64,000 bases of DNA, from NCBI GenBank assembly GCA_015060445.1, contig SUYL01000037.1, forward strand, positions 1,577 through 65,576, in the 5' to 3' direction. A program made the position numbers and the translations under genes. The DNA is from Bacteroidales bacterium (lineage in GTDB: Bacteria; Bacteroidota; Bacteroidia; Bacteroidales; UBA932). The notes beneath the pieces are model-generated. The model made no database searches and was not told the origin of the DNA. It worked only from the letters and a program-made list of their open reading frames with translations. This document shows positions 1-28,629 of this stretch, in pieces; the first letter of the stretch is position 1; the number at the start of each line of letters is the position of its first letter.

Positions 1-2408
1 TTCTTTAGAATAGCAAACTTGTCAGAAATTAAATAGGGTTTAAAGATGGATTTTTTCCAAAATAGTCTTCTGTAATACTCTATAGACATTGAAATGCTTA
101 CTAAAAAAAATATCAGTGGTATCAATAAAGCATACCAGTCCGATACACCTTTAAACATCTCGAATAGTGCTTCTGCAAATAATAGCGCCGTAAATACCCA
201 CCACATAGCCATGGTGGCTCCAATAGTCTTATAATCAGGAATGCCTGTTATCCTTAACCAAAGGGCTCTCCCTGATAAAGCTATAGCACCTGAAACAAGT
301 ATTAGTATATCCCATAATGTCAACCCTTCATACCATTGCTTCATCTCATGGTCTACTGGAAGAATTCCTAAGATAGAGACAATTGTTGAAAGAGCAACCA
401 ATATTATCAACGGGAATAGGAAACAATGCTTTACTAACCCTTTCCTACGCTGCTTTTTTAAGGATTTTGTTATGAATTCATGTGTAAGTGGAGTAAGCAA
501 TTTTTCATACTTGAACAGAAAGTATTCCGCCTGCAACAGCAATGACCTTTCCTGAATAAGTCCTTTGACTGATTTGTTGTCTGCTGCCCAATAGCCAGCC
601 TGCTTTTGGTAATAATCATTCTGTTTGAGGAATTGTGCTTTAGTATTGCACCACTCCCTAATTACTGACCAGAAATTAATAAGCATTTCGTGAACTATTG
701 TAATGGTTGCCTCCCCAGCAGAATTCTTACCCGATACAAAAAGATGGGCATCCACCAACTGCTGCAGAACATCTTTTCGCAATTTGGATCTGGCCACATC
801 CTTCATCAAAGATGTTTTCCTTACAAAAAGCTTCCCTTCCTTGTCTGAAATAGTTATTACAGTTCCTAGCATATCAGAGAACACACTCTTCTCCTGCTCT
901 GTAAATCCATTGTACACTTTGTCTGCATATTTTATAATTGCACCATTAAGTTTGCCAATGGATTCATATGCCTCATAAGTAAGTATTTGGGTAGACTTGC
1001 ATGCATTGTAAAGTTCAGAGAGTCCGAACTCTATCAAAGGCAGTTCGCCCAAAGCAAACGCATCCTGAGCTATCTGCCTGCTCAGCTTTACACCTTTGTC
1101 ATTGATTTCCCAACTTAAATTCGCTTTCCTTGCCGGTTCTTCTACAATTTCTATAATACCCTCATATAAAACTTTAGGTAGATCCACCACAATAGCATTA
1201 TTCTTTATAAGATGCAGATCCGGGTATCTGGAGAAAACATTATAGAAATCGCTTCTCATAGAGAAAATCATCTGTATGCACCTTATTTCACATAATCCCC
1301 GCAACAGAATGAAGGTTCGGATTCTTTCCTGTTCCTGAATTTCATTATCGCTAAAAAGCTCTTCAAACTGGTCTAACAGGAACACCGTCTTAAGTTCACT
1401 ACATGAATTATCCAATGCATATTTGAGATGGCTGAAATTGTATCCCACCTCTATTCCGTTGTTAAGTTCATCAAGAACAGGATTTCCTTTTAGGTAAGGA
1501 AATTCATTGACCAGGATATTAATAATTCCGCTATAAATGTTGTTATGGAATACAGAAGGGATTATTTCATTAACATGTTCCTTGGTAACAGTGCTGCCGT
1601 AATTAACAAAATGCGGCAGGAGTCCCGCTTTAATAAATGATGACTTTCCGGAACCGCTTTCTCCCAAAACAAGTAGCGGCTGTCTCAGTTTCTGATCCAT
1701 AAGCGTCAATTTCTGGGCAACTTCATAAACCATATCCTTACGCCCGCAGTAGATTGCGCTCTGTTCAAAAGTAAAAGAATTAAGTCCTACATAAGGGTTG
1801 CCTTCCCACTCCCGCACATTCACATTTTTGCCAATAGCGTCTATTATAAGTTTCTTCAGATGGGTCCTGAGTCTTTCTTCAAAAGTCTGCTGCTTGTCAA
1901 ACTGCCAATACGCATAATTGGTATTTGTTTCTGCATCATGGAATTTCTCGCCAATAAAGGAATGTAGCATCTCTTGCTGTTTCAATGCATCTTTTATGGC
2001 CACTGTAGACATTCCATTTGCAAACTGCACCTCTACATCCTTAACATAAACCATTATCTTTGGATTCCCGGTTGTGCGCCACAAAGTATACATAGTATCA
2101 AACTCATACTCTGTTCCCGACAAATATTCACTGCCATCCGGTTTGCGGAAAGTATGCCCTAATGTACTTCCCAGACGCGACCACAAAATAAAAATGGCAA
2201 TATCTACGGGTGCAGCATTAAGGAAATAGTCAATCCCATTCTGAAATGAATTGGTTGCTGCCAGAGGTAAATCTTCCCACATCAAAGTTTCCAGTTCAAT
2301 ATACCCCCTATATATGGTCTGCAACTCTTCAATTACTCTTTTTGCAATACCCCTTTCAAGGTTCACATCAGAAGGGGATGAGATAAATATCCTGAGTTTA
2401 TTTTTCAT
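1..2408 (-). CDS. TIR-like (DUF4062-type) N-terminal domain / STAND P-loop NTPase / C-terminal multi-pass membrane region; 3' end runs off the left window edge (>=802 codons present)
   Basis: Not in the supplied ORF track because there is no stop inside the window. Own minus-strand translation from the ATG at 2408-2406 gives MKNKLRIFISSPSDVNLERGIAKRVIEELQTIYRGYIELE... Walker A LLVLGESGSGKSSFIKAGLLP is encoded around 1620-1690 in the same frame. The frame stays open to base 3 (...EYYRRLFWKKSIFKPYLISDKFAILK). Hydrophobic helices occur in the last ~120 codons, e.g. FLFPLIILVALSTIVSILGIL and IGATMAMWWVFTALLF. Confidence 0.7.
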   Translation of the reverse strand, partial: MKNKLRIFISSPSDVNLERGIAKRVIEELQTIYRGYIELETLMWEDLPLAATNSFQNGIDYFLNAAPVDIAIFILWSRLGSTLGHTFRKPDGSEYLSGTEYEFDTMYTLWRTTGNPKIMVYVKDVEVQFANGMSTVAIKDALKQQEMLHSFIGEKFHDAETNTNYAYWQFDKQQTFEERLRTHLKKLIIDAIGKNVNVREWEGNPYVGLNSFTFEQSAIYCGRKDMVYEVAQKLTLMDQKLRQPLLVLGESGSGKSSFIKAGLLPHFVNYGSTVTKEHVNEIIPSVFHNNIYSGIINILVNEFPYLKGNPVLDELNNGIEVGYNFSHLKYALDNSCSELKTVFLLDQFEELFSDNEIQEQERIRTFILLRGLCEIRCIQMIFSMRSDFYNVFSRYPDLHLIKNNAIVVDLPKVLYEGIIEIVEEPARKANLSWEINDKGVKLSRQIAQDAFALGELPLIEFGLSELYNACKSTQILTYEAYESIGKLNGAIIKYADKVYNGFTEQEKSVFSDMLGTVITISDKEGKLFVRKTSLMKDVARSKLRKDVLQQLVDAHLFVSGKNSAGEATITIVHEMLINFWSVIREWCNTKAQFLKQNDYYQKQAGYWAADNKSVKGLIQERSLLLQAEYFLFKYEKLLTPLTHEFITKSLKKQRRKGLVKHCFLFPLIILVALSTIVSILGILPVDHEMKQWYEGLTLWDILILVSGAIALSGRALWLRITGIPDYKTIGATMAMWWVFTALLFAEALFEMFKGVSDWYALLIPLIFFLVSISMSIEYYRRLFWKKSIFKPYLISDKFAILK

Positions 2409-2503
2409 GACACTTCTCTTCTTTTAAGCATAATAACGTGCTTCCTATAAAAATTGAAAATTAATTACTTTTTCCAGATAGATGATTACTAGATTCGTCA
2501 GGT

Positions 2504-2932
2504 TTAATATTCTATTTTGATATTTGCATTAATCTCAATGCCATCACTTAAAATATTAATTTGATTGAGATTTAATAGTTTATGGACCAGAGATAATTCT
2601 GGTATATCACTAAGTGATAGAGTAATCTTGTTATTATTAGCCGATATGAAAGCAAGGTTTTTCATATCGGCAATAGAGTTAAGGATAGTAGGAAGGAATG
2701 TGTTAACAAGTGTGCTGCTATCTGCTTTAAGCACAATATTGTTTCCAGAAACATTATAAATCGATAGTGATATTGAAATGTCCTTCTTTACTTCTCCAAT
2801 GAGGAATAAACTTGTTTTATATGTATATGTGATGTTAATTTTTCCATTGTAACCATATTCCAAATGAATAGGTTGATTTATTTTCTTTGAAATAAAAGAA
2901 TTGATTTCGTGATAATTAGCTTTAAGTTGCAT
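2504..2932 (-). CDS. Small hypothetical protein (142 aa), paralog of the adjacent 133-aa protein
   Basis: ORF track. Very AT-rich. Shares collinear patterns with 2947..3348 (YHEINSFISKKIN vs YTEISNIIKAKTK; GKINITY vs DKINIKI; ISISLSI vs LSLSINS). Lies 14 bp downstream of its paralog on the same strand. No family recognised. Confidence 0.55.
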   Translation of the reverse strand: MQLKANYHEINSFISKKINQPIHLEYGYNGKINITYTYKTSLFLIGEVKKDISISLSIYNVSGNNIVLKADSSTLVNTFLPTILNSIADMKNLAFISANNNKITLSLSDIPELSLVHKLLNLNQINILSDGIEINANIKIEY

Positions 2933-2946
2933 AAATGTAGTAGCCT

Positions 2947-3348
2947 TTATAAGTTAAATATCAGATTGAATCCATTTGGAGTTGCCTCCAATGAGGATAT
3001 TGAAACGGACGCAAATATGTTTCCTAACTTCGGTATCTTAGGTAAACATATTTTGATATGTTTTGTCGAGAAGTTAATAAATGGGAAAATATCGGCTTTG
3101 TTTGAAAGTATGGTTGTAATACCATTAACTAATGATTCAACTCCAGGATAATCACTGTTAATAGATAAACTTAAATCTCCCGTTGGTGAGTAATAAAAAA
3201 GCATGTCCGCATAAATCTCTCCTATATTCTGGTGTGGGATAATTTTTATATTTATTTTATCTGAAGAAATATATGAAAGGGTATTTGCCAACTTTGTTTT
3301 AGCCTTAATTATGTTTGAAATCTCTGTATATGATATAAATATCTTCAT
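2947..3348 (-). CDS. Small hypothetical protein (133 aa), paralog of 2504..2932
   Basis: ORF track. Tandem paralog of the next gene on the same strand. No signal peptide or known motif recognised. Confidence 0.55.
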   Translation of the reverse strand: MKIFISYTEISNIIKAKTKLANTLSYISSDKINIKIIPHQNIGEIYADMLFYYSPTGDLSLSINSDYPGVESLVNGITTILSNKADIFPFINFSTKHIKICLPKIPKLGNIFASVSISSLEATPNGFNLIFNL

Positions 3349-3452
3349 TAAATTTTATTGTGTATAAGTGTTATTTCTATTCTATAATGTATCTTGAGTT
3401 GTATTAAATTTTTAAAATGATAAGGCTAAATCATACATTTATCGTAATTGTA

Positions 3453-3854
3453 TCAAACTATTGTCCATCCATTGTCATAGTGGGCACTGCCAACTTGAAT
3501 CTCTTTACATGTAATTGTAAATTCTTCATATTGTTGCAGTTCATCTTTTTTGTCATAGGTCTCAGCATACTCAATCATGTAAGCCTCCTTAAAACAGACT
3601 TTTTTTATTTCTGAACCTTGATCATTTGCAATAGAAATAAATCCATTTTTGCTCAGATATGTATTGCACATCCATTCCATCAAATCCTCCTCCCCGTTAT
3701 CTTTGGATTTGACTTTAAGGTAGATATATCCCCCTCTAATTGATCCTATAGGCTGGCCTTCTATGTCTGTCTTTTGTTTTAATTCGTAACGGAAATAAAC
3801 TACTTCACGTTCTGCAATGCTATCGGCATTAAAAGTTACAATTTTAGATGTCAT
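3453..3854 (-). CDS. TssD/Hcp-like tube-protein homolog (Bacteroidota T6SS TssD type), orphan
   Basis: 133 aa. The pattern EREVVYFRYELKQKTDIEGQPIGSIRGGYIYLKVKS ... LMEWMC ... KKVCFKEAYMIEY ... EFTITCKEIQVGSAHYDNGW matches my recollection of Bacteroidales TssD proteins (x-GrP-x-GG-x-I-x-V, EWM, F-x-x-AY, final I-x-G...W). No other T6SS core genes are in the window. Confidence 0.6.
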   Translation of the reverse strand: MTSKIVTFNADSIAEREVVYFRYELKQKTDIEGQPIGSIRGGYIYLKVKSKDNGEEDLMEWMCNTYLSKNGFISIANDQGSEIKKVCFKEAYMIEYAETYDKKDELQQYEEFTITCKEIQVGSAHYDNGWTIV

Positions 3855-3885
3855 AATTTTTAATATTATAGGGAATATTATCAGT

Positions 3886-4935
3886 CTATTCTTTTTTTGA
3901 ATTTTTTATAAGTGTTAATTGTGAGATGATTTTTCGTTCAAGGTCTTCCTTTTCATTCTCATAATTGACAAAATCAATACCAGTGAGATCGTATGCAATA
4001 CTATCTGCGTATGGATAGTTGTCAAGTTTTATCGGTATTATCATCTTCCCATGTTCAACGGCAACGGATATCTCTTTTATTACGTTTTCAGACTTATTAC
4101 TGTTCTCAGATGATAAAAACAGAACCATCTGTGATTGCTTGATAGTATTTACAATTACAGATTTATAATTGCGGCCACTATATTCTCCTGTCCTGTCAAT
4201 CCAGAATTTGAGATTCATACGCTTCAATGTTTCTGCCAGTTCGTCTGCCTTTTCGCTGTCAATCCTTGAATAACTTATAAATAAATCATACTCGTCAATG
4301 CTTGTCTGTGCTTGTTTTACAGATTTATTTTCTATGGCAGGTTTAATGTTTCTCTCTACGCATGCGGCAAACTGCTCATAGAAGTCTATATACTTTATAT
4401 AATCAGGTTTTTCAGTTTGGTCATATATGTATAAGTACACTTTGTAGCAGGCATTGGTGCGTTTAAGAAAGTCAGATATGGCGCGGGACATAGTGAGTGC
4501 TATTCTAGGATAAGGAATACGCGCAGTGCCACCTCCTATTGTAGGGAAAGCAATAGAAGAAACATTAAGATGGCGCATAATGTTGAGACATTTTGTTACT
4601 GAATTGCCAATAATGTACTCATGAACTTCTTCAGTAGGCAGATCTTTTAGTGTACTGTTCCCGATGAATCCAATTGTAATGGCGTGAAAAATATATTTAT
4701 AGGGTAGTGTCCCCGAAGTGCTCACAATAATGTCACCAATTTTTGCAGGAACATGTTTCCTTACATCATTTTCTATGGCACCAGTTCCCTCTTTGCGGCG
4801 GATAGATGCAGATACACCTCCTCCCATTGTGACAAAACAATCATCACTGCTTACAAGTATGTCTGCATTCGAATCCAAGATGTTCCCAATTCGTATAGTA
4901 ACTTCTGAATTGTTGTATCTGTAAGTTCTTTCCAT
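3886..4935 (-). CDS. Macro domain - TIR domain fusion protein
   Basis: 349 aa. N-terminal macro motifs: GNILDSNADILVSSDD..MGGGVSASIRRKEG and IAFPTIGGGTARIP. C-terminal TIR_2-type motifs: YDLFISYSRIDSEKADELAETL..KFWIDR, MVLFLSSENSNKSENVIKEISVAVEHGKMIIPIKLD (candidate catalytic Glu in IKEIS). Confidence 0.8.
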   Translation of the reverse strand: MERTYRYNNSEVTIRIGNILDSNADILVSSDDCFVTMGGGVSASIRRKEGTGAIENDVRKHVPAKIGDIIVSTSGTLPYKYIFHAITIGFIGNSTLKDLPTEEVHEYIIGNSVTKCLNIMRHLNVSSIAFPTIGGGTARIPYPRIALTMSRAISDFLKRTNACYKVYLYIYDQTEKPDYIKYIDFYEQFAACVERNIKPAIENKSVKQAQTSIDEYDLFISYSRIDSEKADELAETLKRMNLKFWIDRTGEYSGRNYKSVIVNTIKQSQMVLFLSSENSNKSENVIKEISVAVEHGKMIIPIKLDNYPYADSIAYDLTGIDFVNYENEKEDLERKIISQLTLIKNSKKE

Positions 4936-5055
4936 ATAATGAATATCACAAGACTTTTATTGATCCAAACAAAAATAGTCATATTATAAGCGAACTCCAA
5001 GAGTTTTTATCTTAATTCCGGATATTGAATTATAACGTTACACTGAATCATAATT

Positions 5056-6450
5056 TTAATTCAGTAAACTCAAATCAATGTCAGGTACAATAACCTCCGT
5101 AAGTTTATCCTTAATAAGAAATCCCATATAAAGAGGTATTGTAAGGATCTCTTGTTCGCGACCTACATTATATTGCCCAAGTTTGATTGCATTATTGAGG
5201 TGGTAAACATTCTTATTTTTCAAGGCCGTTTTCAGACTCTTTGTTTTGCCGGATTTCGCCTTGACTTCAAGTACAACACATTCGCCCTTGTAGCGTACAA
5301 GAAAGTCCAATTCAAGACCACTATCCTTCTGGAAGTAGTACAGTTTCTGTCCGGACTTATAAAGAAAATCGGCCATGAGATTCTCAAATATAGCTCCTTT
5401 ATATCCCAAAAGATTTCCTTTGAGGATGTCTGCTTGAGTACCATAATCAAGCATAGCTACAAGAATACCTATATCTGTGGTGTATAACTTAAAGCAATCC
5501 TTAATGGAATTGCCTTCGAGTGGCAGTTCTGTAATCAGTGTATTATAGCATCTCTTTGCTATTCCTGCATCTTCAAGCCATTGGATGCTGCCTATATATT
5601 GCGAAGAACGTCCTCCTTTTCTTACTACTGAATACTGGAATTTTTTATTGTCCTTAGCCAATTGCTTGGGAATAGACTCAAAACATTCACGGATACGGGG
5701 TTTGTCTGCGTCATCTGCGTATTTGACCATATCCTCTTCGTATTCATCAATCAGATTACGCTGTGTTTTGTATGTGAGTTCGATATTTTTAGTTTCAAGG
5801 AATGTGTTTACCACCTCCGGCAGCCCTCCGACTATTACATATCTATGCAATAATTCCATCATTACCTTATGAATACCGTCGGGAACAGCCGTTTCATTTT
5901 CGAAACACACTTTCACCGTATCAATTACTTTGTCGTTGATTCCATTTGCCCACAGGAACTCTTCAAAATCTAACGGGTACATTTCAACCACAGTCTCATA
6001 TCCTATGGGGATAGAGTCCTGTCCCTCCTCCGGTGTTTTGTTGTTTTTACCATATCCTTTTACACCAAGGAGGGAGCCTGTCGCAATAACATCAAAACGC
6101 CCATCCATTTGGAATGATTTTAATGCTGTTCTTGCTTCTCTGCATTCCTGAATCTCATCAAGGATAATGCAAGTTCTTCCATTAATGAAACGACTTCCAG
6201 GAATCAATGCAGACAAATTAAGAATAATGGTATCAACATCAATATTTCCGGCAAAGGCAGACTTTTTATCAGGTTCAAGAATAAAGTTCATATAAACCAC
6301 ATTCTCGTAATTCTCCTTTGCGAATTTTTGGACAATATATGTCTTGCCACATTGACGGATACCTTTTATCACAAGCGGTTTCTTGGAACCGGAGGCTTTC
6401 CACTCAACCAAAACTGACTCGATTTTTCTTTTCAGCATCGTATTATACAT
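5056..6450 (-). CDS. AAA-family ATPase with C-terminal DUF4143 (PD-(D/E)xK-like) domain
   Basis: Walker A VIKGIRQCGKTYIV, Walker B CIILDEIQ, C-terminal ELDFLV...VVLEVKA. The track ORF starts at 6537, but the N-terminal 29 aa look like translated repeat DNA. The likely start is the ATG at 6450 or 6438 (MYNTMLKRKIES). Confidence 0.8.
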   Translation of the reverse strand: MYNTMLKRKIESVLVEWKASGSKKPLVIKGIRQCGKTYIVQKFAKENYENVVYMNFILEPDKKSAFAGNIDVDTIILNLSALIPGSRFINGRTCIILDEIQECREARTALKSFQMDGRFDVIATGSLLGVKGYGKNNKTPEEGQDSIPIGYETVVEMYPLDFEEFLWANGINDKVIDTVKVCFENETAVPDGIHKVMMELLHRYVIVGGLPEVVNTFLETKNIELTYKTQRNLIDEYEEDMVKYADDADKPRIRECFESIPKQLAKDNKKFQYSVVRKGGRSSQYIGSIQWLEDAGIAKRCYNTLITELPLEGNSIKDCFKLYTTDIGILVAMLDYGTQADILKGNLLGYKGAIFENLMADFLYKSGQKLYYFQKDSGLELDFLVRYKGECVVLEVKAKSGKTKSLKTALKNKNVYHLNNAIKLGQYNVGREQEILTIPLYMGFLIKDKLTEVIVPDIDLSLLN

Positions 6451-6663
6451 TTGTTTGAGTGCGAAAATACATTTTTTTAAGCGAATAATCAAGATGTAGT
6501 TACACTTTTTCAGGCGAATAATTCTGTATGGCAACATTTTTTAGAACGAATAAACAGATGAATTGTAGCAGCCTCAAAAAGTAGTGCAACTTTTTGCACT
6601 ATAAAAAGATAGATTTTTTGTATTTCTCCCTCTATACATAAAAGATCATTAATTTTTACTGTT

Positions 6664-7095
6664 ATGTTAATTCTTATTTCTTTTATGGTGTTAGCCTATG
6701 CGATTATGGGTAAGGATATTAAACCTCTTTTGGAGCGTGTGAGACGTGTTGAATGGCGCTGGGAGATAGAGAAGTTATTGGAAAAGATGAGGCCATGGGC
6801 TCTCAAGGCTGGACGAGTTGCCGCCAAACCTCTATTGCAGTTCTATTTTGTATTGTCGGATGAAAGTACTTCAACAGCTGACCGTATGATGATTTATGCT
6901 GCAATAGCTTATACTGTTCTGCCAACGGATTTATTGCCAAGGGCAGTGTATAAGTTGCTGGGTATCCTGGATGATGGAGTGGCAATTCTGTATGTTTATA
7001 GGAAGATAAAAGATAATATTACTCCAGAAATTGAGGAAAGAGTTGAAAATACACTTAATGAATGGTTTGGTGTTGAATATAGCGTAGTGAAATAA
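6664..7095 (+). CDS. DUF1232 (YkvA-like) membrane protein
   Basis: Motif IYAAIAYTVLPTDLLPRAVYKLLGILDDGVAILYV is typical of DUF1232. N-terminal TM helix. Confidence 0.7.
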   Translation: MLILISFMVLAYAIMGKDIKPLLERVRRVEWRWEIEKLLEKMRPWALKAGRVAAKPLLQFYFVLSDESTSTADRMMIYAAIAYTVLPTDLLPRAVYKLLGILDDGVAILYVYRKIKDNITPEIEERVENTLNEWFGVEYSVVK

Positions 7096-7115
7096 ATAAG
7101 AAGGACTTGAAATCT

Positions 7116-7436
7116 ATGAATAAACGTATTGCACTTGTGCTATGCCTAATCCTGTATCTTTTGTGTACTTTGTTGAGAACATATAATTGGGGGAGAGTGG
7201 AAACGGGATATGATGAACTTAATGATATAGCGGTTTCCTATTATGGATATGATTTTTCTTTTAGGAATATAGATGTGCCGTTGCTGTTGATACTCCAATT
7301 GGTTTTGTCGGTAACACTGGTACCATGGGTAATATGGCTTGTCCGAAAGAGGGATTTTAGAATGGATTGGTTGCACCTGAGTGGTGGAATGTTTTTGAGT
7401 CAATTGGCTGTTGTGGAATGCTTGTCTGCATTATGA
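7116..7436 (+). CDS. Small hypothetical membrane protein
   Basis: The track ORF 7107..7436 begins at a TTG; the first ATG is at 7116. Two to three hydrophobic helices. No family recognised. Confidence 0.4.
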   Translation: MNKRIALVLCLILYLLCTLLRTYNWGRVETGYDELNDIAVSYYGYDFSFRNIDVPLLLILQLVLSVTLVPWVIWLVRKRDFRMDWLHLSGGMFLSQLAVVECLSAL

Positions 7437-7533
7437 TTGGAACAATCTGCCTTTTTTATGAGGTGGTAAGGGCAGTAATGTATCCGGTATTGTTTGGAAA
7501 AGAAAAAGAAGTTAACCCTAAAAATAAATTATT

Positions 7534-7890
7534 ATGAAATGGAATGAAGTTGTTAAAAAGGAGATTGGTATTTTGGATATGGTTATTGCATTTGATACAA
7601 CAGGATCAATGGCAGCCTATATAGATGCAGTGAGGCAGGAGGTTGCAGAACTTATACCTGGTCTGTTCAAAGACAATGAAAACTTGCAACTTGATATTGT
7701 GGCTTTTGGTGATAGTGTGCCTTTTTCCAGCGGGCATAAGACTGCCAGACTGGTTGAAGTTGCAACTATGGTAAGGGGATCGGAGAAATCACGTGCCAAG
7801 TTTGATGAAATGGCATCGGAATGTGTTGATGAGGAGATGCGCAATGTGTTCAGACTTTACGGACTACAGGCAAGGAATAATTATGACTGA
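7534..7890 (+). CDS. Short vWA-like protein (N-terminal half of a von Willebrand A fold; possibly truncated)
   Basis: MIDAS-like VIAFDTTGSM followed by LDIVAFGD, but only 118 aa (a vWA domain is ~180 aa). Its stop overlaps the start of the next gene (ATGACTGA at 7883-7890). Confidence 0.5.
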   Translation: MKWNEVVKKEIGILDMVIAFDTTGSMAAYIDAVRQEVAELIPGLFKDNENLQLDIVAFGDSVPFSSGHKTARLVEVATMVRGSEKSRAKFDEMASECVDEEMRNVFRLYGLQARNNYD

Positions 7891-8992
7891 TATGCTAAAA
7901 GACAAGGTTCGCGGGTCTCTTATGGCGGGTGCTGCAGGAGATGCCCTAGGTTATAAAGTGGAGTTTTGGAGCAGGAAAGCAATCCTGAAGCAGTATGGAG
8001 AGAGGGGGATTGTAAAGTTTGAGTTGGATAAAGGGTGTTATCTTGAGGAGGGTACCGGTAAGGCCCTTATCAGTGATGATACCCAGATGACCCTCTTTAC
8101 TGCAAATGGGCTCCTGAATGCAGTCACTTCAAGGGAGACACCCAAGTATGCTATAGCAAAGGCATACATCGAATGGCTGTTGACACAGGATTACACCCGC
8201 AAAAAAATGGCGAAGAGTTGCTGGATCAGTGGAGATGAAAGATTGTATGATAGGAGGGCTCCGGGAAATACATGTCTCAGTGCTTTGGATTCAATTATTA
8301 GAGGAAGGGATGCCTCCAATAGCAGCAAAGGATGTGGTGGTATTATGAGGGTAGCACCTGTGGGGTTGTATGGTGCTGTCGGGAATAGAATGACAGCACT
8401 TGAGGTGGCGCAATTGGCAGGTGATGCTGCAGAGATTACACATCAGCACCCTTTGGGGTTTCTTCCTGCATCATTGTTGGCAGTGCTGGTATATAAAGTT
8501 GTACCTCAGACTCCTCAATATGTGCAGGAGAATATGGATACTATTGTTGAAGAGGTTCTTGCCCTGCTTGATGAGGTTTACAAAGGGGAATATGAGGCCT
8601 CCAAAAATGATTTGCGCCAAATGAGTTTGAAAGCCATTGCTTTGGCCCATTCCAATACTCCCGACGAAGAGGCAATTCTCCAACTGGGGGAGGGATGGAC
8701 AGCAGAGGAGGCATGGACCATTTCCCTTTTCTGTGCCATCCGCCATATAACCAGTGTGGAGGATGCAATTGCTGCAGCGGTGAACCATGATGGAGACAGT
8801 GACTCCACAGGCTCAATTACCGGAAATATCATGGGGGCAATTTACGGGTATGAACATTTGAAGGAATGCAATCTTTTCACTCCCGACGGTCATCTATTTG
8901 AAGAGACTCTTGAACTTTCAGATTTGATACTCGCCATTGCCGATGACCTTTCAACTGTTGGAGCACTGGATAAAAAACGGTACAAATTTTAA
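7883..8992 (+). CDS. ADP-ribosylglycohydrolase family protein (DraG/ARH-like)
   Basis: GSLMAGAAGDALGYKVEF, ISDDTQMTLF, AVNHDGDSDSTGSITGNIMGAIYG. The track ORF starts at 7793; the ATG at 7883 (MTDMLKDKVRGSL) fits the family N-terminus and overlaps the upstream stop. Confidence 0.85.
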   Translation: MTDMLKDKVRGSLMAGAAGDALGYKVEFWSRKAILKQYGERGIVKFELDKGCYLEEGTGKALISDDTQMTLFTANGLLNAVTSRETPKYAIAKAYIEWLLTQDYTRKKMAKSCWISGDERLYDRRAPGNTCLSALDSIIRGRDASNSSKGCGGIMRVAPVGLYGAVGNRMTALEVAQLAGDAAEITHQHPLGFLPASLLAVLVYKVVPQTPQYVQENMDTIVEEVLALLDEVYKGEYEASKNDLRQMSLKAIALAHSNTPDEEAILQLGEGWTAEEAWTISLFCAIRHITSVEDAIAAAVNHDGDSDSTGSITGNIMGAIYGYEHLKECNLFTPDGHLFEETLELSDLILAIADDLSTVGALDKKRYKF

Positions 8993-9018
8993 AGTGACTT
9001 GATAGAATTCCAGAATAG

Positions 9019-9061
9019 ATCTCTCTATTAGTATATACAAACCTAATAGAGAGATTTTTTT
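9019..9061 (+). terminator. Rho-independent terminator
   Basis: Perfect 13-bp stem ATCTCTCTATTAG (9019-9031) / CTAATAGAGAGAT (9043-9055), 11-nt loop, then a T6 run. Confidence 0.7.
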
Positions 9062-9691
9062 ATGAAACAGAGAATTTTCAATCTCGTCATTCTGGACGAG
9101 AGCGGATCAATGGGGAGCATTGAGAAGCAGGCGGTTGATGGTGTTAACGAGACAATCCAGACAATCCGCAAGGCACAAGAGAAGCATCCTGAGCAGGAGC
9201 ATTATATTTCTGTGGTTACATTTAATGATGATTCCAGAACTGTATATGATTGTGTTGCGGCAAATGAGGTCAAGGAGTTTGGCAGCAGTGACTATAATCC
9301 GGACTGTTGCACAGCCCTTTTTGATGCAATGGGTTTTTCGTTGAATGCCCTTAAACCTAAAGTGGCTGAGAATGACAAGGTCCTTGTTACCATAATCACC
9401 GACGGTATGGAGAACGCATCCAAAGAGTTCTCAAATGACGCAATCAGTACACTTGTAGATTCCCTTAAGGCCAGAGGATGGGTGTTTGCATATATTGGGG
9501 CAAACCAGGATGTTATGAAGGTGGCAGCCAGTATTTCAATTACTAATACCATGTGTTTCCACAGTACATGGGAAGGAACAGCGGCAATGAACAGTAGGGT
9601 GAGACGTAGCCGTGAAAGGATGTATGACAGGATGGCTGAAGATGATTTCAATCCGGTGGAGGCAAACAATACTTTTTTTGAGGAGGAATAG
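9062..9691 (+). CDS. vWA domain protein (~210 aa, complete MIDAS)
   Basis: LVILDESGSMGS (DxSxS), CTALFDAM (Thr), LVTIITDGMEN (Asp). Confidence 0.8.
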   Translation: MKQRIFNLVILDESGSMGSIEKQAVDGVNETIQTIRKAQEKHPEQEHYISVVTFNDDSRTVYDCVAANEVKEFGSSDYNPDCCTALFDAMGFSLNALKPKVAENDKVLVTIITDGMENASKEFSNDAISTLVDSLKARGWVFAYIGANQDVMKVAASISITNTMCFHSTWEGTAAMNSRVRRSRERMYDRMAEDDFNPVEANNTFFEEE

Positions 9692-9694
9692 ATA

Positions 9695-10867
9695 ATGAAG
9701 AAGAGAATTTCATTCAAACTTTTCCGTACTGTTGTCTGGAGGGGTTTGTGCCAGATGGCAGAATCTGTCGGGAAACTGTTTGGCTATAAGGGGGAGGGCT
9801 CTTTTGCCAAAGTTGTATGGAGGATTTTTGCGGGGTGTGGTGCCCTGTTGCTGCTGATGTTTACAAGTGTGATGCTGTATGGATTCATTACAGAGATTGT
9901 TATAGATGAATTTGCCGAGTCTGTGGGGTTGTGCAAGCGGGAGCCATGGAAGGAGATTCACATAAGCAATAATGTTGTGCATCAGAGGTTTTATAATGCA
10001 AAGTCGCGCCTGTATAATGAGGCAACCGGAAAAGTGATGATTGAAGGTTTGGATTGGGTTGTCACCTCAGATGACAAGGATTCCCTTGCCGTATTTGCAA
10101 AAGACGGCAAAAGGGGCTATGTAAACCGTTTTACCGGTGAGATTGCCATTCCTGCGCAATATACAAGGGCTTGGGTATTTTGTGAGGGGCTTGCGGCTGT
10201 GGAGAAGGATAGACAACTGATTTTTATAGACCATAGCGGCAATGTTGTAATTGACAAAGGTTTTGAGGTCTATTTCAATGATGATGCATACGGCTTTAAA
10301 AATGGATACTGTATAATAAGGGACAAGGTTACCGGAAAGTTTGGCCTTATAGACAGGAAAGGTGAATGGGTATTGGAGCCTGAGTTTGACAATATTCATC
10401 CTATGGATTCTTTTGTGAGAGTTTATAAAGATGACCTTGAAGGGTTGTATTCAATTAAGATGGAAGAGATGTTTGCTGTACAATATCAGGAAATATATAT
10501 GACAGACAGTACAATTGTTGCAAGAGGGACAGATGATATTGCCGCCATTTATGATCTGGAGGGGAATGTACTGCACCCAATGGTAATAGATGATGTTGAG
10601 GTGTTGGAGTACCCTACAAAGAAATATCATATAGTGCAGGATGAGGAGGAAGGTGAACTTATTGACCATGTGTATGCAGTTGCAAACTGCATGTCATATA
10701 AAGTGGGGGCAACTTATGCCAGGGGGCATTATGGTCTGCTGAGTCCCCAGGGGAAACGGCTTACTCCTCCAATCTACACAAAGATTGAGGCCATTGCCGC
10801 AAACAGATACTTGTGCCAGCCGCAAGGTGTGATACTTGATGATAATGGGAATCAGGTGAAACAATAG
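9695..10867 (+). CDS. WG-repeat (KWG-like) protein with N-terminal TM anchor
   Basis: Repeated units GKRGYVNRFTGEIAIPAQYTRAWVFCEGLAAVEKD and GKFGLIDRKGEWVLEPEFDNI. TM helix FAGCGALLLLMFTSVMLYGFI. Confidence 0.7.
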   Translation: MKKRISFKLFRTVVWRGLCQMAESVGKLFGYKGEGSFAKVVWRIFAGCGALLLLMFTSVMLYGFITEIVIDEFAESVGLCKREPWKEIHISNNVVHQRFYNAKSRLYNEATGKVMIEGLDWVVTSDDKDSLAVFAKDGKRGYVNRFTGEIAIPAQYTRAWVFCEGLAAVEKDRQLIFIDHSGNVVIDKGFEVYFNDDAYGFKNGYCIIRDKVTGKFGLIDRKGEWVLEPEFDNIHPMDSFVRVYKDDLEGLYSIKMEEMFAVQYQEIYMTDSTIVARGTDDIAAIYDLEGNVLHPMVIDDVEVLEYPTKKYHIVQDEEEGELIDHVYAVANCMSYKVGATYARGHYGLLSPQGKRLTPPIYTKIEAIAANRYLCQPQGVILDDNGNQVKQ

Positions 10868-10904
10868 CCACATTTTCATCTAAATTGGGTATTTTTTTAT
10901 ATTG

Positions 10905-10945
10905 TAGGGTGTAAAACTTTTATGTAGTTTTGCACCCTATTTTTA
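10905..10945 (+). terminator. Rho-independent terminator-like hairpin
   Basis: TAGGGTGTAAAAC (10905-10917) / GTTTTGCACCCTA (10927-10939), one G-U position, followed by TTTTTAT. Confidence 0.5.
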
Positions 10946-13943: not shown

Positions 13944-16130
13944 ATGAAAAAGACAATGAAATTGGCATTGGCTGTATGCTCTGCACTGTTTGTAATGGGC
14001 GGTAGCAGTTGCTGCAGCAATGCAGATACAACCCTGGCTGTGGTTGTAGATGAAAAGACTTATGCAGCCATTCCAGAGCAGATTGACGCTTATGTGAAAT
14101 CTGTAGACAATGACTACAGAAAGGGTGTTCTTGTGGTTGACAAATGGTTCAACCCGGATTCTATAAAGGCACACCTGTACAACATGTACACAAATGAGAA
14201 TCTTGAAGGTGCAGTATTCATTGGAGATATTCCAATTCCAATGTTGAGGGATGCCCAGCACTTTACAACAGCATTCAAGATGAACCAGAGAATGGATATG
14301 AAGAGATCATCTGTCCCTTCTGACCGTTTCTATGATGATTTTGACCTCAAATTCAAGTTCCTGAAGCAGGATGAGCAGAAGAAACTCTACTTCTACTATT
14401 CTCTCCTTGCAGACGGGGCACAGGAAATAGAGTGCGACATATATTCTGCAAGGATAAAGGCTCCTGAAGTGGAGAACAAATATGAACTCCTTGCAGCATA
14501 TCTGCAGAAGGCGGTTGCAGCAAAACAGGACTCAGCCCCAATGGACAAGATGCTTCATTTTGGAGGACACGGTTACAACTCTGAGAGTATGAACGCCCGT
14601 ATAGATGAGGCTGTTGCCTTTTCAGAGCATTTCCAGTTCCTTAACCGCAAGGGTGGGGACCTCGATTATATAGACTTTACATTTGACGAGTATGTGAAAA
14701 CCCGCCTGTTGGCTGCAGTGGCAGACAAGGAGTTGGATCTTGCTGTCCTTCACCACCACGGTGCAGATGATACCCAATATCTGAACGGCTCGCCATTTGT
14801 TGCTGATCCTACAGGATGGATTAATCTTGCAAGGAACTATTTCAGAGGCAAGGTGCGTTCTGCAAAGAATGCCGAGGTGACAAAAGCCCGTTTTGTAAAG
14901 AACTATGATATTCCAAGATCATGGGTAAATGACGCATTTGACCCTGCACGCATTCAGGAAGACAGCCTCCATGCAGCTTCTATGGATATTGTAATTTCAG
15001 ATCTTGAGGGTTACGAGTCAGGTGCCAGAATGATTATATTTGATGCGTGCTATAACGGCAGCTTCAACCAGGATGATTACATTGCCTGCCATTATATCTT
15101 TAATCCTGGAAATACAGTAGTTGTTAAAGGTAATAGTGTGAATACACTTCAGGATACCTGGACAACTGAACTTATAGGTCTGCTCAACTGGGGTATCTCT
15201 GCCGGAAACTGGGCAAAAGGGCAGATGACCCTTGAGTCACACCTTATTGGAGACCCTACTTTTGAGTTCGGTGCCCAGGATGTGGAGTATTTCAACAAGG
15301 GAGGATTCAATATCAATGAGGTGATTGCATCCAGAAAGAATGATGTAAGATATTGGAAAAAAGTCCTTGATGCCCCTGTGGATGATGAGTTGGTTTGTGA
15401 CTTCAAATCTCTGGCAATAAAGATGCTCTACAACAACAATGCAATAACTTCACAGGAGTTGCTCGATATCCAGAAAAACAGCAACAGCAAGGTGTTGCGT
15501 CTGGCTGCTTTCAATACCAACAGGAAAATTGCTGATGAGAATCTTCCAAAGGCAATTATCCTTGGATTGGCAGATGATTATGAACTTACACAGCGTCTTA
15601 GTGCAATGTATGTGGGCAAGAACTTCTCTGAGGAACTTATCCCTGCAGTTGTGAAGACCTATATGGACCCTATGACCTCTGCCCGTGTACTATTCCAGTT
15701 GAGTGGTAACCTTAAAGGTTATGATGCACAGAAACTCATTGCCCAGTTCAATAAGGAGAATCAGGCAAATCCTTATTGGGAGGGCCAGGAGGCTTTCGGG
15801 AAACTGATAAAGATGATAAACAATTATGACAAGTCGTTCCAGGAGGAGATTGCCGGTGTAATGGACGGAACAATGTCATTGAAGGAGCAGAAGAGTTTCG
15901 CCCGTGGGAGACGTAACGGCTGTGAGCCAAAATTGGTGGAGTCTTTGATGCACATTATAAAAACTGCCAAGGATGAGGAGTTGAAACTCACTGCAATTGA
16001 GGCTTTGGGATGGTATGAGTACTCATGTGTAAAGGATGACATCATTGCCCAGTGCCAGGCATTGTATGATGCAGAGGGTGATGGCGCAGCCAAGGATGAA
16101 CTTCTCAAGACCCTTAACAGATTAAAATAA
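13944..16130 (+). CDS. Lipoprotein with possible caspase-fold (clan CD, C25-like) domain and C-terminal HEAT-like repeats
   Basis: Signal MKKTMKLALAVCSALFVMGGSSC. His-Gly (LHHHGADD) and Ala-Cys (IIFDACYNGSF) dyad-like motifs. C-terminal repeats (LRLAAFNTNRK.., LKLTAIEALGWY). The function call is tentative. Confidence 0.55.
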   Translation: MKKTMKLALAVCSALFVMGGSSCCSNADTTLAVVVDEKTYAAIPEQIDAYVKSVDNDYRKGVLVVDKWFNPDSIKAHLYNMYTNENLEGAVFIGDIPIPMLRDAQHFTTAFKMNQRMDMKRSSVPSDRFYDDFDLKFKFLKQDEQKKLYFYYSLLADGAQEIECDIYSARIKAPEVENKYELLAAYLQKAVAAKQDSAPMDKMLHFGGHGYNSESMNARIDEAVAFSEHFQFLNRKGGDLDYIDFTFDEYVKTRLLAAVADKELDLAVLHHHGADDTQYLNGSPFVADPTGWINLARNYFRGKVRSAKNAEVTKARFVKNYDIPRSWVNDAFDPARIQEDSLHAASMDIVISDLEGYESGARMIIFDACYNGSFNQDDYIACHYIFNPGNTVVVKGNSVNTLQDTWTTELIGLLNWGISAGNWAKGQMTLESHLIGDPTFEFGAQDVEYFNKGGFNINEVIASRKNDVRYWKKVLDAPVDDELVCDFKSLAIKMLYNNNAITSQELLDIQKNSNSKVLRLAAFNTNRKIADENLPKAIILGLADDYELTQRLSAMYVGKNFSEELIPAVVKTYMDPMTSARVLFQLSGNLKGYDAQKLIAQFNKENQANPYWEGQEAFGKLIKMINNYDKSFQEEIAGVMDGTMSLKEQKSFARGRRNGCEPKLVESLMHIIKTAKDEELKLTAIEALGWYEYSCVKDDIIAQCQALYDAEGDGAAKDELLKTLNRLK

Positions 16131-16152
16131 ATAACCTGCAAAACCATATTTT

Positions 16153-24277: not shown

Positions 24278-25441
24278 TTATCTGAGCCTGTATTTGTAGA
24301 AGTGTTTGCGGATTAGGGTGAGGAGGTAAACAAGCCCCAGGATTGTGAGGGCAAATCCTACAGCGTATGCTGTTGAATAGTTTGAGTATTGGGCAATTAT
24401 GCCGCCGCAGAAAACTCCTGCTCCCACTCCTAGATCAAAGAATGTGAGATAGGTGGCATTTGCGGCTCCCCGTTCTGTATCTTCACCCAGGTTTATTATC
24501 ATTGTTTGGGCAGTGGGGGAGATGAGTCCGTAGCCTATGCCCATAAAGATGGCGGAGGAGTAGAATGCTGTGGGGTTAAGTATGAATGCCACTATAAAGA
24601 ACCCGATAATGAGGGAGATTATCCCCAGTGCAAATACCATTATATATTTCCCGCTCCGCAGAATCATTGATGATGAGAGTCGTGCGGCTACAAGACCGGC
24701 GGAGAATATGGTAAAGTAGTATCCTGTACCTTGGGTAAGTCCAACCTCTTCCTTTGCGTATATTGAGAGATACACTGTAATTATTCCGTATCCGAATGTA
24801 AGGAGCACCATTACGGCAGCAACCGGAAGACCCTTCCGCAGGAGCAGGCTGGAGATGCTGAATTTTCTGTTAGAACGCTGCACATCCTTGCCAGGCTTTA
24901 TGTTTGCTGTGGCCAGAAATCCTGTCAGGCCAACGCAGAATACCGCAATGAAAATGGTATTGAATTCAATACCGTTCTCATTCATAAAAAGAGAGATAAG
25001 CGGTCCTGTGGCCATGGCAAGGGAGGTAGATGAGGTATAGATTCCCAATCCTTCTCCTCTCCGTTCCCAGGGGATGATATCTACAGCCATTGTATTTATC
25101 CCTACGGTTGAGCACCCGAAGGCTATGCCGTGTACAAAGCGGATTATAAAGAAAAGTCCCAATGTGGCTGCCAGTGTGTAACTCAGGCACATTGAGATAT
25201 AGAAAAGATAGAAGCACATCATAAGGGGCTTGCGGGAGGCTTTGTCGAGCCAGAATCCTGCTACAGGCCTTGTTATGAGTGCCGCTATAGTATAAAGGGA
25301 CAATATTGTCCCTATTATTGATTCACTTGCGTGAAGATGGTTTGCCAGATATAGTGGCAAAATGGGCAACAACATGTAAAAAGCGTTGTACATTAAGAAG
25401 TTGCCCAAGTTTACCAATATGAAGTTCCTGTTCCAAAGCAT
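24278..25441 (-). CDS. MFS transporter
   Basis: ~12 predicted TM helices, loop motif GFWLDKASRKP. Likely start MLWNRNFILVNLGNF at 25441 (track start is 25483). Confidence 0.85.
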   Translation of the reverse strand: MLWNRNFILVNLGNFLMYNAFYMLLPILPLYLANHLHASESIIGTILSLYTIAALITRPVAGFWLDKASRKPLMMCFYLFYISMCLSYTLAATLGLFFIIRFVHGIAFGCSTVGINTMAVDIIPWERRGEGLGIYTSSTSLAMATGPLISLFMNENGIEFNTIFIAVFCVGLTGFLATANIKPGKDVQRSNRKFSISSLLLRKGLPVAAVMVLLTFGYGIITVYLSIYAKEEVGLTQGTGYYFTIFSAGLVAARLSSSMILRSGKYIMVFALGIISLIIGFFIVAFILNPTAFYSSAIFMGIGYGLISPTAQTMIINLGEDTERGAANATYLTFFDLGVGAGVFCGGIIAQYSNYSTAYAVGFALTILGLVYLLTLIRKHFYKYRLR

Positions 25442-25560: not shown

Positions 25561-25600
25561 GACACCTGATATTTTAGTTTGTACTGTTTTGTTTACAGTG

Positions 25601-25637: not shown

Positions 25638-25658
25638 GAAAATTTTCTGCAAAAAATT

Positions 25659-26459: not shown

Positions 26460-26513
26460 AATATTAAAAGTTATTTTTTGGTTATAAGCGCAAAATTAGT
26501 GTATTTTTGTGAT

Positions 26514-28607: not shown

Positions 28608-28629
28608 TTTTATTGTAAAAAGATAGAAA

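Follow-up and report, generated by a model that had tools for sequence, protein, structure and literature searches.

Avs proteins sense a phage portal or terminase in the cytoplasm, and Thoeris combines the TIR protein ThsB with ThsA, which carries a SIR2 or Macro effector. The DUF4062 domain has been reported to be a TIR-like NADase whose catalytic residue is a Glu, and to adjoin NACHT in TEP1, NWD1/2 and NPHP3 (bioRxiv 10.64898/2026.05.01.722283). Minor Hcps of Bacteroidales bind and load cognate effectors and co-segregate with them, and Bte1, of the Hcp1-Hcp2-Bte1 module, has a mass of 33.9 kDa (PMC13213661). Here, we compare these systems with a cluster of five genes at one end of a 64,000-nucleotide stretch of Bacteroidales DNA (the window), which a sequence-only reading had proposed to be a single conflict system with a STAND sensor and an NAD-based effector. 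As that reading had assumed, the combination differs from any named defence system: PADLOC gave only partial TIR/ThsB-type and PDC-S60 N-terminal matches and a PDC-S01 match in the neighbouring gene. The single-system proposal itself fared less well, and we consider it likely that at least three cassettes, each mobile on its own, make up the cluster as a mosaic, having become adjacent by chance in a variable island of low GC content in one Bacteroidales lineage of rumen type.

Gene content of the cluster

ORF calling reproduced five co-directional reading frames on the minus strand at positions 1-4935, with intergenic gaps of 31, 104, 14 and 95 bp in the order Macro-TIR, TssD, A, B, STAND. Pfam matches to Macro, TIR_2, PF17642 and PF20703 confirmed the earlier domain calls (Macro plus TIR, TssD-like, STAND NTPase). 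The features of the cluster and of the gene next to it are:

5056..6537, minus strand: AAA_14/DUF4143 ATPase, neighbouring gene (PADLOC PDC-S01, PDLC04786, full length, E=1.5e-153; Pfam)
3886..4935, minus strand: Macro-TIR, 349 aa (Pfam Macro E=1.3e-11; TIR_2 E=6.6e-18)
nt 4507-4842, minus strand: Macro domain of Macro-TIR, aa 32-143 (Pfam)
nt 3940-4281, minus strand: TIR_2 domain of Macro-TIR, aa 219-332 (Pfam)
3453..3854, minus strand: TssD/Hcp, T6SS tube protein family, 133 aa (PF17642 E=7.9e-29)
2947..3348, minus strand: small protein A, 133 aa, first of two tandem paralogs (paralog of B)
2504..2932, minus strand: small protein B, 142 aa, second of the pair (alpha/beta protein in the AF2 model)
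1797..2408, minus strand: STAND N-terminal domain, aa 1-204, divergent DUF4062-like (TIR-like), flavodoxin-type fold
570..1796, minus strand: STAND nSTAND1 NTPase module, aa 205-613 (PF20703 E=1.5e-63; Walker A GESGSGKSS)
1..410, minus strand: start of the STAND membrane region, aa 667 onward (hydropathy; the window edge truncates the gene at aa 802)

Macro-TIR is matched by NCBIfam models of ADP-ribose-binding/deacetylase type, below their cut-offs, and the stretches GGG 38-40, FPTIGGGTA 130-138, FxSYSR and SENVIKE are invariant in six homologs (63-81% identity). E288 is likewise invariant, and its position is taken to be that of the putative TIR catalytic glutamate. The protein shares with Thoeris the Macro domain and a ThsB-type TIR (PADLOC ThsB1 E=1.3e-10; Pfam ThsB_TIR E=9.6e-7). 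Unlike in Thoeris, Macro and TIR lie on one polypeptide, which lacks any SLOG or SIR2 part and any membrane effector part, and the cluster contains no separate ThsA gene, ThsA models matching only at E ~0.003 to 0.08. Macro-TIR may be pictured as a conserved stand-alone protein with a putative NAD+/ADP-ribose-handling activity.

The STAND frame is open from 2408 to beyond position 1 (802 codons in the window), and its missing 3' end was recovered from a metagenome contig identical to the window, giving a full-length protein of 1190 aa (L001:11447-15019). The 388 aa beyond the window edge hold the fifth helix, TPR and a C-terminal domain of ~150 aa without family match. Hydropathy of the full-length protein revealed five hydrophobic segments at aa 667-822, followed by ~365 aa with TPR and the unassigned domain, so that the block of membrane helices is not C-terminal, as had been read. 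From hydropathy and the positive-inside rule, the TPR tail is probably periplasmic.

The N-terminal motif RIFISSPSDVNLER and the P-loop GESGSGKSS, both noted before, were found in the STAND translation. Of the two TIR-type domains claimed for the cluster, TIR_2 of Macro-TIR stands, and the STAND N-terminus was rejected as a canonical TIR: its match to Pfam DUF4062 (PF13271; E=0.0031) reached 18 bits at a curated cut-off of 24.7 bits, and in hhalign its profile was unlike those of the local TIR_2 domains (probability 1.5%). DUF4062 was matched by 15/17 STAND family members (best E=4e-4). FISSPxDVxxER, WED, ILWSRxG and SGTEYE are invariant motifs of this domain. With the AF2 model of the domain (pLDDT 82.4), the top Foldseek TM-score was that of a plant TIR (0.42/0.50). 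The domain also shares homology with the N-terminal part of PDC-S60 (E=4.7e-14); the common region is confined to the first ~185 of 906 profile positions, so the remainder of the STAND protein differs.

The arrangement of the STAND protein, with the DUF4062-like domain directly before a STAND-class NTPase and repeats, resembles TEP1, NWD1/2 and NPHP3. Like the DUF4062 defence proteins (Swarozyc, Evangelion), it is a single-gene architecture in defence islands, and its invariant acidic SGTEYE near aa 100 lies not far from the position of E97, the catalytic residue reported for KpSwz. It differs from these proteins in having an nSTAND1 NTPase instead of NACHT, five predicted membrane helices between NTPase and repeat region, and TPR and an unassigned domain in place of WD40 (DUF4062-NACHT-WD40) or the Swarozyc auxiliary domain. 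With Avs and the bacterial NLR-like nSTAND1 conflict systems (Kaur, Iyer, Burroughs, Aravind, eLife 2021, PMC8195603) it shares the tripartite build of effector, STAND NTPase and repeat sensor, clear nSTAND1 membership and a location in variable islands as a one-gene unit. Unlike these, it matches no PADLOC Avs model, has no apparent effector-associated (Death-like) adaptor domain or partner gene, and is predicted to span the membrane with its sensor region outside the cytoplasm. The protein consists of a putative DUF4062-like NADase-type effector, the nSTAND1 NTPase, the predicted membrane helices and a TPR plus unassigned region predicted to face the periplasm. This C-terminal region may sense a ligand, upon which the protein would oligomerise in an NTP-dependent manner and bring its N-terminal domains together; once clustered, these could start to cleave NAD+ or a related nucleotide, which would lead to cell arrest.

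Small proteins A and B are weakly related tandem paralogs, in agreement with the earlier reading: a single comparison gave 27% identity with E=2e-4, and profile searches place both in one family. Protein A had no match in Pfam, NCBIfam, PADLOC or PHROGs and no signal peptide evident by eye. For the AF2 model of B (pLDDT 81.8, pTM 0.73), Foldseek detected no structural relatives (PDB best E=0.17, TM<0.31; BFVD best E=0.15), and the pair is without recognisable fold or family. The B family comprises 148 representative clusters at E<=1e-3, and two relatives have a B-type domain fused to DUF1232. The nearest diverged relative of the pair, P0004/P0006, lies on a 7.2-kb contig.

Distribution of the five gene families

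The five families were searched for by a profile (HMM) scan of 34 fetched loci, mostly short metagenome contigs, which sample three STAND ortholog, six Macro-TIR and about four A/B contexts; the homolog searches seeding these contexts depend on shared words. All five families occurred together only in the window-type contigs of one lineage (L001-L007), and homologs of most pairs lie apart elsewhere, so the single-system reading, in which the STAND protein as sensor would form one integrated whole with NAD-based effectors, a component resembling Hcp and the two accessory paralogs, is unsupported. The genes are indeed co-directional and closely spaced, match no named system together and recur in this arrangement in more than 20 metagenome contigs; however, every one of these contigs carries an identical TssD, and the two compared by blastn (L001 and L002) are 100% identical to window positions 1-7000. 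In diverged relatives, each component occurs without the others and blastn homology stops at CDS boundaries, covering 3463-4938 against L018 and 3890-4936 against L023 and beginning at the start codon at 2408 against L025 and L029. We consider an integrated five-gene system very improbable.

STAND homologs form more than 120 full-length clusters (37-64% identity), and orthologs (48-58% identity) were found without the other four families (L025-L030). One stands alone among nutrient-uptake genes, flanked by SusC/D-type and TonB-receptor genes (L027/L028), another has a helicase of the DUF4011 family and the portal gene of a prophage as neighbours (L025), and a third lies within an island of TIR, M48 and PrsW genes (L029). 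We read the STAND protein as an autonomous receptor or sensor encoded by a single gene. Pairs of an A-like and a B-like gene were seen again in L008-L016, where TssD, Macro-TIR and STAND are all missing and the partner is a membrane protein of Fer4 type or a TIR_2 gene in convergent orientation. A and B could form a self-contained two-gene module of a small-protein family with a non-enzymatic look that adjoins varied conflict genes; most likely they bind or regulate, in the manner of immunity or adaptor proteins.

Macro-TIR occurs alone, without TssD, in three contexts from three lineages (L023, L024, L032). Macro-TIR plus TssD is the only pair that recurs among the 34 loci (L017-L020, L031, L033), and blastn indicates that it is inherited as one block including the spacer. 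Besides the window, it was found in two further contexts, each with different genes downstream: a SIR2-TIR gene and then a distant nSTAND1 gene in L017/L018, and a TIR-WD40 gene in L031. A TIR- or STAND-type sensor gene in the same orientation is downstream in all three pair-bearing contexts, which could mean a looser functional coupling.

Readings of the Macro-TIR and TssD pair

The orphan tssD of the window follows Macro-TIR after 31 bp and encodes a genuine Hcp-family protein, with PDB sequence matches to Hcp1 (6bdc, E=1.5e-20) and to Hcp2, Hcp3 and TssD of B. fragilis. Neither the fetched flanks nor 44 kb of the window's unique sequence contained a T6SS gene; left of the window, where a complete T6SS locus had been considered, there is only the remainder of the STAND gene, followed by an IS21 IstB gene. 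The search returned only 8 TssD relatives. The TssDs linked to Macro-TIR in L018 and L031 are 76-78% identical both to each other and to P0045, a TssD encoded directly after TssC (L021); the window TssD is 63% identical to P0045 and 63-66% across these three. Since the linked TssDs are so close to a TssC-adjacent one, and since the pair is the only recurring one, the orphan Hcp-linked cassette that the sequence-only reading had offered as an alternative is a live reading of this sub-part, although its immunity component has no consistently adjacent candidate. In some loci, an extra T6SS tube gene, tssD, may have been acquired directly downstream of Macro-TIR, and the pair, once formed, would move together. 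Most likely, it would work as a minor-Hcp-plus-cargo module, as in Bacteroidales T6SS, with a putative contact between Hcp and Macro-TIR.

In its full form, this alternative makes Macro-TIR the toxin of a T6SS encoded elsewhere, TssD its carrier Hcp and A and/or B the immunity or adaptor proteins in the window, with STAND unrelated. As in Hcp1-Hcp2-Bte1, a TssD gene and a closely linked gene of non-structural type move together as a cassette, here through three flanking contexts; the order tssD, small gene, small gene recalls hcp, effector, immunity, and the size of Bte1 makes a 40-kDa cargo conceivable. In contrast to Hcp1-Hcp2-Bte1, the pair is not part of a T6SS locus, the gene for the candidate cargo precedes tssD instead of following it and exists also without TssD, and no adjacent immunity gene is conserved: A and B are mutual paralogs, occur elsewhere without any Hcp and are missing from L018 and L031. 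Literature searches found neither TIR nor Macro domains as Bacteroidales T6SS cargo. Taken with all its parts, we regard this reading as possible but rather unlikely. Still more doubtful is a plug-in accessory module, in which the pair would dock beside interchangeable TIR/STAND sensors and modulate NAD-derived signalling, Macro binding or degrading an ADP-ribose-type signal and the Hcp acting as bait, decoy or scaffold. It would account for the sensor genes that follow the pair (in the window the nSTAND1 protein with its DUF4062-like domain, in L018 SIR2-TIR and nSTAND1, in L031 TIR-WD40); moreover, the Pfam family name ThsA_Macro points to Macro as the signal-binding part of some Thoeris ThsA, and activation of the NADase DSR2 by a phage tail tube protein has been reported (PMC11850899). 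However, the islands are saturated with TIR genes, and sensor adjacency therefore carries little weight; the three sensors share their domain class but are otherwise non-homologous, A and B stand between the pair and the STAND gene in the window, STAND orthologs are present in contexts without the pair, and the linked TssDs are indistinguishable from a T6SS-locus TssD.

Neighbouring genes

The preferred mosaic of cassettes lies in a region with a GC content of 0.29-0.39 (window 1-7000) compared to 0.44-0.46 in the flank, and housekeeping genes fill window positions 11-35 kb. Terminator and promoter scans were at chance level and defined no operon boundaries. The AAA_14/DUF4143 gene is a separate module outside the five genes, beyond which plus-strand DUF1232, ADP-ribosylglycohydrolase, VWA and WG-repeat genes follow. 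The adjacent AAA/DUF4143 gene and ARH/vWA cluster that had been proposed are thus present, and the defence-island setting holds up. As far as we found, PDC-S01, to which this neighbour corresponds over its full length, and PDC-S60 are computational candidates.

Gene content of the cluster and distribution of its five families

The six-frame ORF list contains four complete minus-strand genes and an open frame running from 2408 to the window edge, at the positions and with the intergenic gaps (31, 104, 14 and 95 bp) given by the sequence-only reading, which had proposed the five genes as one candidate conflict system. Its domain calls were borne out by Pfam for the Macro (E=1.3e-11) and TIR_2 (E=6.6e-18) domains of the 349-aa protein, for TssD (PF17642, E=7.9e-29) in the 133-aa protein and for nSTAND1 (PF20703, aa 205-613, E=1.5e-63) in the large protein, hereafter the STAND protein. 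The two tandem small proteins, A and B, are indeed weak paralogs, with 27% identity and E=2e-4 in a single comparison, and form one family in profile searches. The neighbours are also as described, namely an AAA_14/DUF4143 gene and a plus-strand ADP-ribosylglycohydrolase/VWA group.

Features of the cluster and its immediate neighbours in the window
<1-2408, minus strand, STAND gene, cut by the window edge
1-410, minus strand, start of the STAND membrane region (aa 667-1190 of the protein encoded at L001:11447-15019)
2504-2932, minus strand, small paralog B
2947-3348, minus strand, small paralog A
3453-3854, minus strand, TssD
3886-4935, minus strand, Macro-TIR
5056-6537, minus strand, AAA_14/DUF4143 ATPase (PADLOC PDC-S01, PDLC04786, E=1.5e-153, profile positions 1-434 of 439)
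6664-10867, plus strand, co-directional group: DUF1232, a 109-aa unannotated ORF, a VWA-like fragment, ADP-ribosylglycohydrolase, VWA (209 aa), WG-repeat protein (390 aa)
6664-7095, plus strand, DUF1232 gene of this group (143 aa)

The full-length profile match assigns the 5056-6537 gene to PDC-S01; its start codon is uncertain, as callers on identical contigs give 460, 464 or 493 aa. In the plus-strand group, the 118-aa VWA-like fragment (7534-7890) overlaps the start of the ADP-ribosylglycohydrolase gene (7793-8992), which may reflect a frameshift or a wrong start. The GC content of 0.29-0.39 across window 1-7000, compared to 0.44-0.46 further right, fits an acquired island. The minimum of the region, 0.287 at 2501-3500, is centred on the A/B pair (housekeeping flank, about 0.45) and is consistent with a separate, recent acquisition of the A/B cassette. 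Scans for sigma-70 promoters, terminators and Bacteroides-type promoter patterns stayed at chance level, and no operon was defined from them.

In the right part of the window, 24795-44397 and 44398-64000 are the two 19,603-nt arms of an inverted repeat that is perfect (100% complementary), has no spacer and reaches the right end; all genes right of 44398 are mirror copies. It most likely arose as a chimera, by fold-back during assembly or amplification, and the right 19.6 kb are unfit as gene context. Since an independent JGI contig (L034) carries the window genes of about 13.4-34.3 kb in the same order, the part of the left arm that it covers is probably genuine.

When profiles of all five families were run against every fetched locus, the five co-occurred only in the window-type contigs (L001-L007); elsewhere the homologs are mostly not co-localised, which speaks against a single five-gene system. 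STAND homologs are numerous (more than 120 full-length clusters, 37-64% identity), and in none of three ortholog contexts were the other four families present. One ortholog (L025/L026, 55% identity) neighbours a large DUF4011-family helicase gene and a prophage portal gene, one (L027/L028, 48%) stands alone between SusC/D-type and TonB-receptor genes, and one (L029/L030, 58%) belongs to an island with TIR_2, M48, PrsW and RyR genes. In blastn comparisons, the block shared with L018, a locus with Macro-TIR and TssD, spans 3463-4938, the block shared with two loci carrying Macro-TIR alone (L023 and L024) spans 3890-4936, and homology to L025 and L029 begins at the STAND start codon at 2408. Homology thus ends at CDS boundaries, which is the signature of cassette shuffling. 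As judged from a small number of metagenome contigs, most of them short, which were seeded by homolog searches that rely on shared words, the cluster is probably a conflict island assembled from separable cassettes, and each cassette either varies a known type or represents a small uncharacterised family. Comparison of alignment A3 with JGI metagenome contigs gave no relative. Scans of viral contigs, with A/B, Macro-TIR and the STAND N-terminus as queries, were empty and gave no indication that the cassettes are phage-borne.

The statement that no named system matches the cluster also held, as no PADLOC system model fits it. Membership in Thoeris, CBASS, DarTG and Avs was rejected, since each fails a defining feature. 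For Thoeris, the likeness is confined to TIR-domain-level ThsB matches, a separate ThsA gene is absent from window 1-12 kb and ThsA matches are very weak (E=0.0033 in PADLOC, 0.081 in Pfam). No CD-NTase was matched for CBASS and no DarT for DarTG, the DarG matches being weak and partial (PADLOC E=4.5e-5; NCBIfam E=5.8e-4, far below the cut-off). The STAND protein resembles Avs in its tripartite layout, with one TPR unit detected, and matched no PADLOC Avs model at E<=0.1.

The main value of this analysis is a correction: a tidy five-gene 'system' resolves into cassettes when diverged relatives are compared. Bacteroidales have densely shuffled TIR and STAND genes, and island-based discovery in this group calls for corresponding caution. 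What remains novel is the Macro-TIR/Hcp pair, which recurs, the STAND architecture with its predicted sensing at the envelope, and the A/B family with its orphan fold.

The Macro-TIR and TssD pair

Macro-TIR relatives with 63-81% identity stand alone in a goat-abomasum Bacteroidales MAG (L023), a Prevotellaceae RUG (L024), both of which are GTDB genomes, and in L032. In L017-L020/L033 and in L031, Macro-TIR is followed by TssD, and the genes after the pair differ between loci: SIR2-TIR and then a distant nSTAND1 gene (about 26% identity around the P-loop only) in L018, and a TIR-WD40 protein in L031. The glycine-rich Macro motifs and E288 in SENVIKE are invariant among the relatives, and from the motif pattern E288 is the putative catalytic glutamate of the TIR domain. 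A plasmid tblastn search with Macro-TIR returned distant single-domain matches only.

The TssD protein belongs to its family by a wide margin (PF17642, 100.6 bits; cut-off 25.8), and its sequence matches in the PDB are Hcp1 (6bdc, E=1.5e-20) and B. fragilis Hcp2, Hcp3 and TssD; PHROGs yielded nothing for it. One relative, P0045, is encoded directly after TssC (L021). It shares 76-78% identity with the TssDs linked to Macro-TIR in L018 and L031, which are 78% identical to each other, and the window TssD is 63-66% identical to all three, compared to 27-32% for annotated plasmid-borne TssDs in plasmid tblastn. This closeness to the TssC-adjacent protein rather than to the plasmid copies argues that the Macro-TIR-linked TssDs are not a separate repurposed clade.

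Minor Hcps of Bacteroidales assemble into heteromers, bind Bte1, an effector of 33.9 kDa, and segregate together with effector cassettes (2026 JBC, PMC13213661). By analogy with this behaviour, the best reading of the pair is an orphan Hcp with its cargo. The pair is like the Hcp-effector modules of Bacteroidales, but it is not located in a T6SS locus: T6SS genes (TssB, C, K, F, G and others) are absent from window 1-35 kb, from L017, L018 and L031, and from L001 beyond the STAND gene. The last of these contigs covers the sequence left of the window, where a T6SS locus had been suggested as a possible home of the TssD gene; it carries the rest of the STAND gene, then an IS21 IstB gene and no T6SS. 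Further points against an orphan Hcp with cargo are that the candidate cargo is encoded upstream of tssD, that Macro-TIR also exists without TssD, and that there is no conserved partner gene able to serve as immunity, as no gene consistently adjoined the pair across L018, L031 and the window in the HMM scan. If the pair does act as a unit, it might be the first case in Bacteroidota in which a dedicated orphan Hcp loads a TIR-domain (NADase-type) cargo; alternatively, it might be an immune enzyme under the control of a tail-tube-like protein. In our literature search, no paper on a Macro-TIR fusion with Hcp came up. A Macro-TIR gene that repeatedly comes with its own genuine T6SS tube gene outside T6SS loci is a lead, which could point to a novel class of T6SS cargo or to a novel use of Hcp.

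In two of the loci with the pair (L018 1-20399 and L017), conflict-type genes are packed densely on one strand: CHAT-TPR; TIR_2 (461 aa), nSTAND1 (813 aa) and TIR_2 (324 aa); Macro-TIR, TssD, SIR2-TIR and nSTAND1 (819 aa); Amidase_2; two unknown genes; TIR-Sel1; and a transglutaminase+kinase+TIR protein. This array may hold split effector plus nSTAND1 two-gene systems.

Architecture of the STAND protein

The window TssD protein recurs identically on at least 23 public metagenome contigs, and two contigs, L001 and L002, are 100% identical to window 1-7000 in blastn. From these two, the missing 3' end of the STAND gene was recovered (388 aa beyond the window edge), giving a complete protein of 1190 aa (L001:11447-15019). 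It consists of an N-terminal domain of about 204 aa, nSTAND1, five hydrophobic segments (aa 667-822) and a region of about 365 aa, in which one TPR unit was detected (aa ~990-1020) and the final ~150 aa of which match no family. The membrane block, which had been called C-terminal, is therefore central, as the full-length protein continues well past the segments. In L001, an IS21-family IstB gene with a partial upstream ORF lies on the opposite strand at 15182-16164, 160 bp past the STAND stop codon, and the left edge of the island is a junction with a mobile element there.

The assignment to nSTAND1, a clade defined in conflict systems (PMC8195603), is firm (216 bits; cut-off 27.1; profile positions 1-377 of 379; Walker A GESGSGKSS). 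Seven K/R residues precede TM1, a further seven are found in the loop between TM4 and TM5, and TM5 is followed by an acidic stretch. By crude hydropathy reasoning rather than a dedicated predictor, this charge distribution suggests an N-in/C-out topology, with the TPR region predicted outside the cytoplasm. Five segments are also the modal count among 117 STAND homologs. A predicted periplasmic, TPR-containing C-terminal region is unusual for a STAND/NLR-like protein.

The N-terminal domain had been read as a second TIR-type domain. Run as a fragment, it matches DUF4062 (PF13271, E=0.0031, profile positions 1-80 of 82), at 18.1 bits and thus below the gathering score of 24.7 bits. DUF4062 was the top family for 15 of 17 N-termini of the family (best E=4e-4), with no other family recurring, and none of eight full-length STAND homologs matched it at E<=0.01. 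PADLOC PDC-S60 has the same N-terminal domain (E=4.7e-14). The AF2 model is a three-layer alpha/beta fold (pLDDT 82.4, pTM 0.80), for which the best Foldseek TM-score was obtained with the RPS4 TIR domain (0.42/0.50, E=0.017) among many generic flavodoxin-like matches; a nucleoside deoxyribosyltransferase was matched as well (0.35/0.45). The motifs FISSPxDVxxER, WED, ILWSRxG and SGTEYE are invariant in the family, as are E100 and E102. When its profile was compared with those of the local TIR_2 domains, hhalign gave a probability of 1.5%, and PDB sequence searches were empty with the single sequence and the profile alike, which speaks against a canonical TIR. According to two 2026 preprints, DUF4062 is a TIR-like NADase whose catalytic Glu is E97 in KpSwz, acts in the single-gene antiphage systems Swarozyc and Evangelion, and adjoins NACHT in TEP1, NWD1/2 and NPHP3 (bioRxiv 10.64898/2026.05.01.722283). 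Together with this literature, the recurrent DUF4062 matches, the homology to PDC-S60 and the alpha/beta model support a divergent DUF4062-type effector, below formal thresholds.

By analogy, the STAND protein may work like Avs/NLR or DUF4062-NACHT proteins, to which it adds the membrane-spanning segment; PHROGs gave nothing for any of its parts. We consider unlikely a reading in which Macro-TIR and TssD form a functional unit joining a T6SS tube protein to NAD+/ADP-ribose chemistry and in which, separately, the STAND protein is a membrane-spanning NLR-like receptor passing a periplasmic cue to a cytoplasmic DUF4062-type NADase. The family of more than 120 full-length clusters with DUF4062-like domain, nSTAND1, five membrane helices and TPR is nevertheless a lead: if the topology is true, NLR-like sensing would extend to the cell envelope.

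The A/B small-protein family

Another lead is the two-gene small-protein family to which A and B belong, which has no recognisable fold. An exhaustive profile search at E<=1e-3 returned 148 representative clusters, nearly all of them stand-alone proteins of 130-150 aa, and the family is unnamed in the source databases, Pfam, NCBIfam and PHROGs. An fn3 'fusion' from this search, P0299, was set aside as a probably spurious partial match, comprising three short stretches in an otherwise fn3-repeat protein. Near-invariant positions across 51 diverse members are limited to E9 and one Leu. Such sparse conservation speaks against an enzyme, and we guess at a role in binding or regulation. The AF2 model of B reached a pLDDT of 81.8, was confident in just one or two of five models, and had no Foldseek match in PDB or BFVD.

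Outside the window-type contigs, the A/B pair occurs without the Macro-TIR, TssD and STAND families (L008-L016). In L008-L015 the tandem of an A-like (133 aa) and a B-like (139 aa) protein recurs, followed by a Fer4-type 158-aa protein with a C-terminal membrane segment. A divergent cluster accompanies the pair there, encoding a weakly ECF-sigma-like protein, two peptidases of the M48 type, a protein kinase, VWA, PP2C and transglutaminase. These neighbours of the pair, with the Fer4 gene, occupy about 1-9400 and 10449-10925. In L008, further kinase-FGE-sulfatase genes lie on the other side, past the Fer4 gene. The same pair borders on a convergent TIR_2 gene in L010/L011, and in L016 a pair lies among small unknown ORFs. 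One identical B-like protein, P0019, has different downstream genes, Fer4 or TIR_2, which indicates recent recombination at that point. Two distant relatives, P0259 and P0302, are fusions of DUF1232 to the A/B domain. With a DUF1232 gene also present in the window, these fusions hint at a possible link between the two families.
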